From assembly GCF_055900595.2 (NCBI RefSeq), contig NZ_CM148325.1: DNA of 64,000 nt. One strand, given 5' to 3'. The notes under the pieces are model-generated. The model was not told where the DNA came from. It was given only the letters and a program-made list of their open reading frames with translations, and searched no databases. Within the stretch, counting starts at the first letter, position 1; each line of letters begins with the position of its first letter. Shown here in pieces: positions 29,309 through 30,163 of the stretch. Position numbers and translations under genes: made by a program.

Positions 29309-30163
29309 ATGTACATCATTTCAAGCAAAAACATGCTGAGAAAAGCCCAGTCAGAGGGATATGCCGTCCCTGCTTTCAACATTCATAACCTTGAAACTTT
29401 ACAGGTAGTTGTTGAGAGCGCTGCACAACTTCGCTCTCCCGTTATGCTGGCGGGAACACCGGGTACTTATCGTTATGGCGGCGTGGGAAGTTTGATTTCG
29501 TTAGTACAATCGCTGGCTCGCGAGTACAACCTACCGTTAGTCCTGCATCTCGATCATCATGAAGAGTGTGATGACATTTTTAACAAGGTCCGCGCAGGGA
29601 TCCGTTCTGTCATGATTGATGGTTCCCATTTGCCATTTGAAGACAACATTGCGCGAGTGCAAGAAGTTACCGCCTTTTGCCATTGCTTTGATGTTAGCGT
29701 TGAGGCCGAGCTAGGGCGTCTTGGCGGTCAGGAGGACGATCTGCTGGTGGATGAAAAAGATTCAGCTTATACCTCACCAGCCGCAGCTGCAGAGTTTGTT
29801 CAACGTACCCAAATTGACTCTCTGGCGGTAGCAATAGGCACTGCACATGGTTTATATGCGCATGAACCACGTCTGGATTTTGTGCGGCTGGAACAAATTC
29901 GCCAGCTGGTAGAAATTCCGCTGGTGTTGCATGGAGCTTCAGGTCTATCGGAACAGGACGTTCAGCTCTGTATTCGCCACGGTATTTGTAAAGTAAATGT
30001 CGCGACAGAATTGAAAATTGCGTTTGCCGATGCATTAAAAGGATATTTCTACAACAATCCAGCGGCAAATGATCCTCGTCATTATATGCAGCCGGCAAAG
30101 GCCGCCATGAAGGAAGTTGTAACCCGCATTATTGGCGTCTGTGGCAGTGAAGGAAAAATTTAA
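29309..30163 (+). CDS. class II ketohexose-1,6-bisphosphate aldolase (GatY/KbaY/FbaA family)
   Basis: 284 aa; N-terminus [39 protein letters not shown] and metal-binding histidines ([18 protein letters not shown]) closely parallel GatY/KbaY by recall; AGGAG Shine-Dalgarno 5 nt upstream. Confidence 0.88.

Follow-up and report, generated by a model that had tools for sequence, protein, structure and literature searches.

The closest described relatives of the aldolase considered here are GatY, encoded in the galactitol operon gatYZABCD of Escherichia coli, and KbaY (AgaY), encoded in the aga cluster for N-acetylgalactosamine. In strain K-12, gatZ directly adjoins gatY, the aga cluster begins with kbaZ, and both aldolases need their own Z proteins to be fully active and stable according to the statements in PMC9720028 and PMC10733421 that cite Brinkkötter et al. 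(2002). GatZ and KbaZ have also been described as tagatose-6-phosphate/fructose-6-phosphate 4-epimerases (PMC11907403). A further aldolase gene, tagY, belongs to the tag island, which in E. coli Nissle 1917 (EcN) lies between yhdT and accC and which is not found in K-12 (PMC9720028). The genes of the island were later named tagK-tagR and, in divergent orientation, tagYABCDE (PMC12226905). The present analysis concerns the tagY gene of "the window," a 64-kb stretch of DNA (64,000 nucleotides of contig NZ_CM148325.1) in which the aldolase gene stands without a Z gene; the missing Z gene is not discussed by the authors who described the island (PMC9720028).

The six-gene tagY-tagE cluster is required for growth of EcN on tagatose and is sufficient for it in E. 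coli K-12, B, and W, and an in-frame deletion of the EcN tagD orthologue abolishes this growth (PMC9720028). Host PfkA is required as well, since a pfkA mutant neither grows on tagatose nor consumes it (PMC9720028). Tagatose induces the operon that starts with tagY, and cells depend on this operon to grow on D-tagatose (PMC9720028, PMC12226905); TagR acts as its tagatose-responsive repressor in EcN (PMC12226905).

The gene content of the window (an rrn operon, acrS, fis, dusB, prmA, panF, yhdT, the island, accC, accB, acuI, csrD, and mreB) identifies it as E. coli chromosome, and the locus is the already published D-tagatose island tagK-tagR/tagYABCDE (PMC9720028, PMC12226905), which the first-pass annotation of the window had not recognized as such. 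The explanation of the locus that is favored here, and considered probable as a whole, is that tagY encodes the island's own tagatose-1,6-bisphosphate aldolase, that the loss of Z is a derived state, and that no Z gene is needed in cis. TagY would then either act by itself, like KbaY in its crystal structure, or receive help in trans from kbaZ or gatZ. In the proposed pathway, tagatose would be imported by the TagABC transporter, phosphorylated at O6 by TagD and at O1 by the housekeeping enzyme PfkA, and the resulting bisphosphate would be split by TagY into dihydroxyacetone phosphate (DHAP) and glyceraldehyde-3-phosphate. The tagY gene stands at the head of the operon tagYABCDE, which is repressed by TagR and induced by tagatose.

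TagY among the Class II Aldolases

The tagY gene is preceded by an AGGAG ribosome-binding site 6–7 nt upstream of its ATG, and the strand opposite the gene is riddled with stop codons. The first-pass annotation had described the product as a GatY/KbaY-type aldolase, which the comparisons bear out. TagY is 64.0% identical to GatY of K-12 (283 amino acids, E 8e-127), 56.7% identical to KbaY (E 1e-108), 37% to YdjI, and 24% to FbaA (tblastn). Family membership was assigned by comparing NCBIfam profile scores with the curated cutoffs. The protein matches the class II aldolase family over residues 1–283 (TIGR00167, 331.8 bits, cutoff 215.6) and passes the GatY subfamily model (NF009374, 521.2 bits, cutoff 383), the model NF006626 (489.8 bits, cutoff 384), and the tagatose-bisphosphate equivalog (TIGR01858, 472.7 bits, cutoff 443.55). 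It fails the KbaY-specific equivalog (NF009375, 376.4 bits, cutoff 542) and the FbaA model (NF006628, 96.7 bits, cutoff 297), and it lies under the cutoff of every fructose-bisphosphate (FBP) aldolase equivalog (NF009497, 315 bits against 423; TIGR01859, 310 bits against 343). The PF01116 domain is present in all close homologues of TagY.

Residues 1–283 of TagY align without gaps to the AgaY structure 1GVF, so the residue numbering of AgaY/KbaY is valid for TagY. Asp82, His83, Glu134, Glu142, His180, His208, and Asn230 are all kept in the alignment with GatY and KbaY. In AgaY, as Hall and co-workers reportedly found in 2002, His83, His180, and His208 are the zinc ligands, Asp82 is catalytic, and Glu142 belongs to a loop. 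The roles of such residues in class II aldolases are known from the FbaA literature, and Asp110, His111, Glu183, His227, and His265 of FbaA align with the zinc-ligand and catalytic positions of TagY. At the specificity positions the enzymes part: Ala48, Thr50, Ala232, and Pro251 of TagY are identical in GatY, in KbaY, and in all sampled relatives, whereas FbaA carries Gln60, Ser62, Asp289, and Lys326. This active-site comparison with GatY and FbaA, which the first-pass annotation had proposed, thus places TagY with GatY. Membership in the FbaA clade, raised there as an alternative, was rejected on the curated model scores and the specificity residues, at an overall identity of 24%.

By its scores and residues, TagY is classified as a GatY/KbaY-type aldolase outside the FbaA clade. 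It is probably zinc-dependent, with D-tagatose-1,6-bisphosphate as its predicted substrate and DHAP and glyceraldehyde-3-phosphate as its predicted products. Within E. coli, the ratio of nonsynonymous to synonymous divergence (dN/dS) of tagY is 0.059 in comparison with EcN and 0.052 in comparison with strain E69, values that mark strong purifying selection.

Absence of a Z Gene from the Island

A tblastn search with GatZ and KbaZ of K-12 found no GatZ/KbaZ-like sequence in the six frames of the window (best E 0.14, over 22 amino acids). None of the eight island proteins matched a GatZ/KbaZ model in NCBIfam or is PF08013-like, and an island of 99.9% identity has no Z-type gene in its RefSeq annotation, in agreement with the first-pass annotation. 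A diverged or decayed Z gene within the window was rejected because no frame gave a match. Furthermore, the gap between tagE and accC measures only 92 bp and thus leaves no room for a Z remnant.

Z genes are common elsewhere in the species. With a coverage of at least 80%, kbaZ was found in 5314 of the 5426 complete E. coli genomes (98%) and gatZ in 5003 (92%); the island region was found in 1419 at the same coverage. It follows that kbaZ must be present in at least 1307 of these 1419 genomes with the island, a bound that is derived from the totals and not from a genome-by-genome table. Strain Z0117EC0005, whose island is 99.9% identical to that of the window, contains an intact kbaZ..kbaY cluster ∼117 kb from the island. 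As kbaZ and gatZ are nearly universal in E. coli, help to TagY in trans is possible.

Gene Order in Related Islands

The comparative set consisted of 34 loci with TagY relatives, obtained by scanning a single genome of each species, and of loci that were fetched later, each spanning ∼10 kb on either side of the aldolase gene. Three versions of the island were distinguished by what follows tagD. In E. coli, Enterobacter sp. ENT03, and Superficieibacter it is tagE (DUF4432). In three genomes of Trabulsiella and in Enterobacter sp. BIGb0383, tagD is followed directly by accC, with neither tagE nor Z. In Serratia sp. H1w, Serratia fonticola, and Budvicia diplopodorum, tagD is followed by a GatZ_KbaZ-like gene (PF08013). 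The S. fonticola island (fis-dusB-prmA-panF-yhdT/tagK tagR/tagY tagABC tagD plus Z/accC-accB) occupies the same chromosomal site as the island of E. coli. The gene order is also the same in Serratia sp. H1w, which shares the accC flank, and in B. diplopodorum, whose cluster does not adjoin accC. The tag proteins of Serratia and Budvicia are 66–87% identical to those of the window, and their Z protein, with 67% identity to GatZ, has retained six out of six GatZ signature residues (listed in PMC11907403).

The tagY gene comes first in all Enterobacterales versions of the cluster type that uses an ABC transporter (ATP-binding cassette), including the clusters without tagE or Z. In the ABC-kinase clusters of the Alpha- and Betaproteobacteria, a tagatose-6-phosphate epimerase gene takes the same position after the kinase and no aldolase is present (Ha et al., PMC9720028). 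Since Z follows the kinase both in Serratia and Budvicia and in the Alpha- and Betaproteobacteria, the state with Z is most simply the older one, and the lack of Z in the E. coli island looks derived, either by a lineage-specific loss or by a replacement.

Y and Z Genes in Other Clusters

Clusters that contain only one of the two genes, Y or Z, were found beyond the ABC-type islands. A match to Z (E ≤ 1e-3) was missing in 30 out of 38 screened loci; many of these 30 come from closely related Gilliamella, and a few loci are incomplete. Clusters with a phosphotransferase system (PTS) and without Z within ∼10 kb were identified in Orbus mooreae, Zophobihabitans, Erwinia endophytica, and a Citrobacter, in the order tagK-like kinase, tagR-like regulator/Y, tagatose-1-phosphate kinase, EIIBC, EIIA; the same type of cluster runs on into gatZABCD in Buttiauxella and Pseudocitrobacter. 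A metagenomic contig (L050) that lacks Z encodes a LacI regulator and an ABC transporter together with a class II aldolase and two kinases, one a tagatose kinase and one LacC-like. The reverse arrangement, Z without Y, is present in two loci (L051 and L052) where a kinase-Z pair stands beside a cluster of polyol ABC transporter and dehydrogenase genes.

In bee-gut Gilliamella (L023–L039, e.g., L039 4730–10855), gatA-gatB-gatC-gatD-gatR are followed by a LacC-like tagatose-6-phosphate kinase and next by a Y aldolase, with no Z within 10 kb. Galactitol catabolism in Gilliamella is a different solution from gatYZABCD of E. coli.

Among representatives of the TagD-like kinases at 50% identity, several proteins are fusions of a PfkB kinase with a GatZ_KbaZ-like part: P0126 (L047 2589–4808, 739 amino acids, Z part 49% identical to KbaZ), P0131 (L048 8001–10292, 763 amino acids), and P0175. 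For another kinase representative, P0122, the context was too short to be used. No Y-type aldolase is visible near the fusions P0126 and P0131 on their metagenomic contigs. For one kinase::Z fusion the setting is an amino-sugar locus that also holds an ABC transporter and NagA-like and NagB-like genes. The fusions tie Z to tagatose-6-phosphate, the product of the kinase, and this pattern agrees with GatZ and KbaZ acting as epimerases (PMC11907403).

Taken together, Y and Z behave in these gene arrangements as separable modules downstream of a tagatose kinase. Rhizobia are not known to possess phosphofructokinase, and a rationale for the pattern would be that organisms without this enzyme can leave tagatose-6-phosphate only through Z, whereas in organisms with PfkA the bisphosphate is made and Y is needed. 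A further-reaching proposal, which is put forward only tentatively, is that TagY is naturally free of Z and that Y and Z, instead of forming one enzyme together, are alternative exits from tagatose-6-phosphate, one by PfkA plus Y and the other by epimerization through Z to fructose-6-phosphate, which evolution would combine at will downstream of a tagatose kinase. In line with this, one type of island occurs with the aldolase only (E. coli and Trabulsiella) and with both Y and Z (Serratia and Budvicia), and other tagatose-kinase clusters have Z only or kinase::Z fusions.

Alternative Explanations

The specificity residues, the curated scores, and the tagatose operon suggest that the missing Z gene is not the sign of a different enzyme. 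The requirement for pfkA favors the bisphosphate route, and we infer that TagY is the enzyme that would carry the flux. TagY may also be independent of Z. The Z-less relatives, the clusters with Z only, the fusions of kinase and Z, and the role of Z as an epimerase all speak for this, and the 2002 report on the stability of GatY and KbaY speaks for the opposite. The first-pass annotation had seen Z as an aldolase partner only; Z has since been shown to be a 4-epimerase (PMC11907403).

Several points weigh against the favored explanation. The published genetics covers the cluster and tagD, and the aldolase was neither singly deleted nor assayed, which the authors state as a limitation (PMC9720028). 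The pfkA result does not identify the acting aldolase because GatY and KbaY were present in every host used, and these host enzymes could cleave the bisphosphate and make TagY redundant. Because all hosts (EcN, K-12, B, and W) are E. coli, with its nearly universal kbaZ and gatZ, the function of the cluster in them does not establish that TagY is independent of Z, and the reported need of GatY and KbaY for their own Z proteins points the other way. In the genomes of other genera, a Z gene could be located beyond the ∼10 kb covered on each side. Finally, in a neighbor-joining tree of the aldolases the Z-less clade has a bootstrap support of 100% but its link to Serratia and Budvicia one of only 38%; as the deep nodes are poorly supported, the direction of the Z loss is read from synteny and from the Z-bearing clusters of the Alpha- and Betaproteobacteria and not from the tree.

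One alternative is that TagY strictly needs Z and borrows the chromosomal KbaZ or GatZ, the Z gene of the island having become dispensable since E. coli already had two copies. The Z dependence cited for GatY and KbaY (PMC9720028, PMC10733421), the high frequency of kbaZ and gatZ in the species together with the kbaZ..kbaY cluster near the island of strain Z0117EC0005, and the GatZ-type gene retained in the sister islands of Serratia and Budvicia would all agree with borrowing, which is nevertheless judged rather unlikely. Clusters with Y and without Z occur in several other genera, including Orbaceae with small genomes. The AgaY structure 1GVF contains AgaY chains only, so that KbaY/AgaY was crystallized without Z, while GatZ-like chains are found in the PDB only in the entries 2FIQ and 3TXV, with no solved complex of Y and Z, and Z has a catalytic activity of its own. 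Furthermore, TagR controls the island, whereas gat and aga answer to GatR and AgaR; co-induction of a borrowed Z would then require cross-induction.

It is also conceivable, but improbable, that TagY is a redundant safety valve and that the flux passes mainly through epimerization to fructose-6-phosphate by GatZ/KbaZ or through cleavage by GatY/KbaY. The lack of a single tagY deletion in the published genetics leaves room for this, as does the fact that both routes need phosphofructokinase for full flux, so that the pfkA result is uninformative on the acting aldolase; in K-12, moreover, the gat genes are constitutive, with gatR interrupted by IS3E. A redundant gene would not be expected, however, to show the low dN/dS of tagY or to lead every Enterobacterales ABC-type cluster, even those without tagE or Z. 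The route through GatZ/KbaZ is further opposed by their epimerase activity, which is described as low (PMC11907403), and by the pfkA mutant, whose failure to grow and to consume tagatose indicates that the flux through an epimerase bypass is too small.

An aldolase for another substrate, be it fructose-, sorbose-, or psicose-bisphosphate, as the first-pass annotation had entertained, or a monophosphate such as sulfofructose-1-phosphate, is very unlikely. Some deposits named kbaY (8Q57 and related entries) are indeed sulfofructose-1-phosphate aldolases, and AgaY has been described as flexible in its stereoselectivity. However, TagY scores ∼207 bits against the sulfofructose aldolases and 351 bits against AgaY, it passes TIGR01858 and fails all FBP-aldolase cutoffs, its specificity residues are those of GatY and KbaY, its operon is induced by tagatose and holds a tagatose kinase, and the locus contains no sulfoglycolysis genes.

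That TagE substitutes for Z by means of an unrelated fold, either through epimerization or by assisting TagY, is hardly to be expected, even though tagD-Z-accC in Serratia and tagD-tagE-accC in E. coli match in position and the coincidence with the position of the Sinorhizobium meliloti epimerase gene was noted by the authors (PMC9720028). Model, structure, and literature searches assigned no function to TagE, which leaves room for such a role, but tagE is not found in the islands of Trabulsiella and Enterobacter sp. BIGb0383 and has a high dN/dS. The mutarotase-like aldose-1-epimerase family of TagE acts at the anomeric carbon, which makes epimerization of a ketose phosphate at C4 mechanistically unlikely, and a mutarotase for the pyranose and furanose forms of tagatose that feeds TagD would be more economical.

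Features of the Window

The features of the island and its boundaries are given in table 1. Several annotated E. coli genomes carry this gene set and match the 9 kb around tagY at 99.9% identity. The island is collinear with 497.5–506.0 kb of the EcN chromosome (NZ_CP058217.1), where eight out of eight genes have the same order and equal length, and each of the eight proteins differs from its EcN counterpart at 2–11 amino acids. The G+C content is 46.0% in the island and 50.1% in the whole window, consistent with the authors' view of a horizontal acquisition.

Table 1. Positions of the tag island genes, the predicted regulatory elements, and the flanking core genes in the window.
Feature	Position	Strand	Description	Basis
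yhdT	26835..27077	-	Core gene, left island boundary	RefSeq annotation of 99.9%-identical strain; same flank in EcN and Serratia fonticola
tagK	27170..28105	-	Putative second PfkB-family sugar kinase	TagKinase NF049991 346.6 bits, cutoff 420; name from PMC12226905
tagR	28137..28967	-	DeoR-family tagatose-responsive repressor	NCBIfam DeoR/AgaR-like; 2 amino acids differ from EcN
Preg	28986..29013	-	Promoter (TTCAAA-16 nt-TATAGT) for tagR-tagK	Consensus scan; hexamers and spacing as published (PMC12226905)
CRP site	29195..29210	+	Predicted CRP site TTCGA-N6-TCACG, upstream of Ptag	Sole exact match in window; weak by itself, as 23 of 100 shuffles also yielded one
tagO1	29240..29258	+	Predicted TagR operator over tagY transcription start	Published 19-mer, 1 mismatch; chance expectation 0
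tagO2	29264..29282	-	Second predicted TagR operator, adjoining tagO1	Published 19-mer, exact; chance expectation 0
tagY	29309..30163	+	Predicted class II D-tagatose-1,6-bisphosphate aldolase (feature under study)	Intact ORF, 284 amino acids plus stop
tagA	30199..31089	+	Periplasmic sugar-binding protein of ABC importer	NCBIfam RbsB-like; RefSeq; name from PMC12226905
tagB	31150..32649	+	ABC transporter ATPase	NCBIfam; RefSeq annotation
tagC	32650..33639	+	ABC transporter permease	NCBIfam; RefSeq annotation
tagD	33661..34623	+	D-tagatose kinase (tagatose to tagatose-6-phosphate)	TagKinase 414 bits, slightly below cutoff 420
tagE	34620..35666	+	DUF4432/aldose-1-epimerase family	Pfam DUF4432, E 5e-104
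accC	35758..37107	-	Core gene, right island boundary	RefSeq; same flank in EcN, Serratia, and Trabulsiella
ORF, open reading frame.

The spacer between tagR and tagY is 341 bp long and differs from that of EcN at 22 positions. The two operators, the CRP site, and Preg were described for EcN, where transcription of the tag operon starts 64 nt upstream of tagY (PMC12226905), which corresponds to approximately position 29245 of the window.

The synonymous divergence from EcN is uneven. It amounts to 0.21 in tagY and 0.26 in tagA, to 0.04–0.10 in tagK, tagR, tagB, tagC, tagD, and tagE, and to 0.14–0.16 in the flanking genes accC and panF. The value for tagY indicates that the window strain belongs to an E. 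coli lineage other than EcN, and the variation along positions 27170–35666 suggests a mosaic, recombinant history of the island.

In the divergent unit, the program called tagK as an ORF of 336 amino acids from position 28180 that runs into tagR; the RefSeq start at 28105 gives 311 amino acids. A divergent pair of a TagD-like kinase and a DeoR regulator upstream of Y is shared by the ABC-type island and the PTS clusters of Buttiauxella, Erwinia, Citrobacter, Orbus, and Zophobihabitans (L014–L022, L044). As the signals of DeoR repressors are usually sugar phosphates, the true inducer may be a product of TagK.

The only relative of TagE in the PDB is 3TY1, a "hypothetical aldose 1-epimerase," the protein has no match in NCBIfam, and a literature search on DUF4432 gave nothing useful. 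The dN/dS of tagE compared with EcN is 0.35, against 0.01–0.12 for the other tag genes, and tagE is under relaxed constraint. TagE could plausibly be a mutarotase that interconverts the pyranose and furanose forms of tagatose and so supplies the 6-kinase.

A contig of an E. coli draft genome (GCA_003428035.1, QNSJ01000077.1; L043 10001–10855) carries an in-frame hybrid of residues 1 to ∼135 of GatY and residues ∼136 to 284 of TagY. The hybrid is flanked upstream by yegT and fbaB of the gat locus and downstream by tagABCDE-accC-accB. It represents either an unequal recombination between gatY and tagY (e.g., by a tandem duplication of ∼1.2 Mb) or an assembly chimera, and it would place the genes of the tagatose transporter and kinase under the gatY promoter.

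Outside the island, the gap of ∼1 kb between accB and acuI/yhdH (37600–38600) contains no long ORF; its equivalent in EcN is annotated as the remnant of a pseudogene for the msrQ/yedZ sulfoxide reductase subunit, and Trabulsiella and Serratia carry intact aroQ and msrQP-like genes at this position. A complete rRNA operon (5540–11027; 16S, two tRNAs, 23S, 5S, a tRNA, and a second 5S) looks ordinary for the region, and an Rfam match to StyR-44 lies in the rRNA spacer directly before the 23S gene.

Significance

The finding is largely ordinary, a catabolic aldolase in a known sugar-utilization island whose gene is already published and named. The comparison adds to this the Serratia island at the same site, in which Z takes the slot of tagE, the Trabulsiella island with neither gene, and the kinase::Z fusions, as a footnote to the published work. 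The tag island has been proposed to favor the fitness of B2-group E. coli when people consume tagatose. Whether TagY acts alone bears on the transfer of the pathway to other hosts, and the practical stakes are modest. GatZ and KbaZ are now labeled as "non-catalytic aldolase subunits" across enterobacterial genomes. The pattern of clusters with aldolase only, with Z only, and with both, together with the fusions, supports their re-annotation as pathway enzymes. If Y and Z are indeed alternative exits, the label of a non-catalytic subunit or chaperone would be wrong and the stabilization of GatY and KbaY a secondary effect.

Comparison with Known Systems

The TagY protein of EcN (ECOLIN_RS18695/HW372_RS02445) is the orthologue of the window protein, with 276 out of 284 residues identical (97%) and with the same site, genes, operators, and promoters. 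From EcN to the window, the substitutions are K11R, S87C, T122A, R126C, R146L, R200L, H220L, and R224H; four of the eight replace an arginine of the EcN protein. The tag clusters of Serratia and Budvicia differ from the E. coli island in having a Z gene in the slot that is held by tagE in E. coli.

GatY is likewise a class II zinc aldolase of 284 amino acids that falls under the same subfamily model and shares the catalytic and specificity residues of TagY. The contexts of the two genes differ: gatY is immediately followed by gatZ in a PTS pathway under the control of GatR, whereas tagY has no Z and stands with an ABC importer, a tagatose kinase, and TagR. KbaY/AgaY of the N-acetylgalactosamine pathway is 57% identical to TagY, the kbaY cluster starts with kbaZ, and TagY fails the KbaY equivalog. 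FbaA belongs to the same PF01116 family and has the same zinc ligands and the same catalytic Asp and Glu as TagY, but it shares only 24% identity and has other specificity residues.

The tagatose/galactitol clusters of S. meliloti and Agrobacterium tumefaciens resemble the tag island in their ABC importer and TagD-type kinase (PMC9720028), and the kinase-Z arrangement of the two polyol-associated loci described above is comparable to them. In these clusters, a Z-type epimerase leads to fructose-6-phosphate and there is no Y aldolase; the E. coli island, with Y and without Z, is the reverse.

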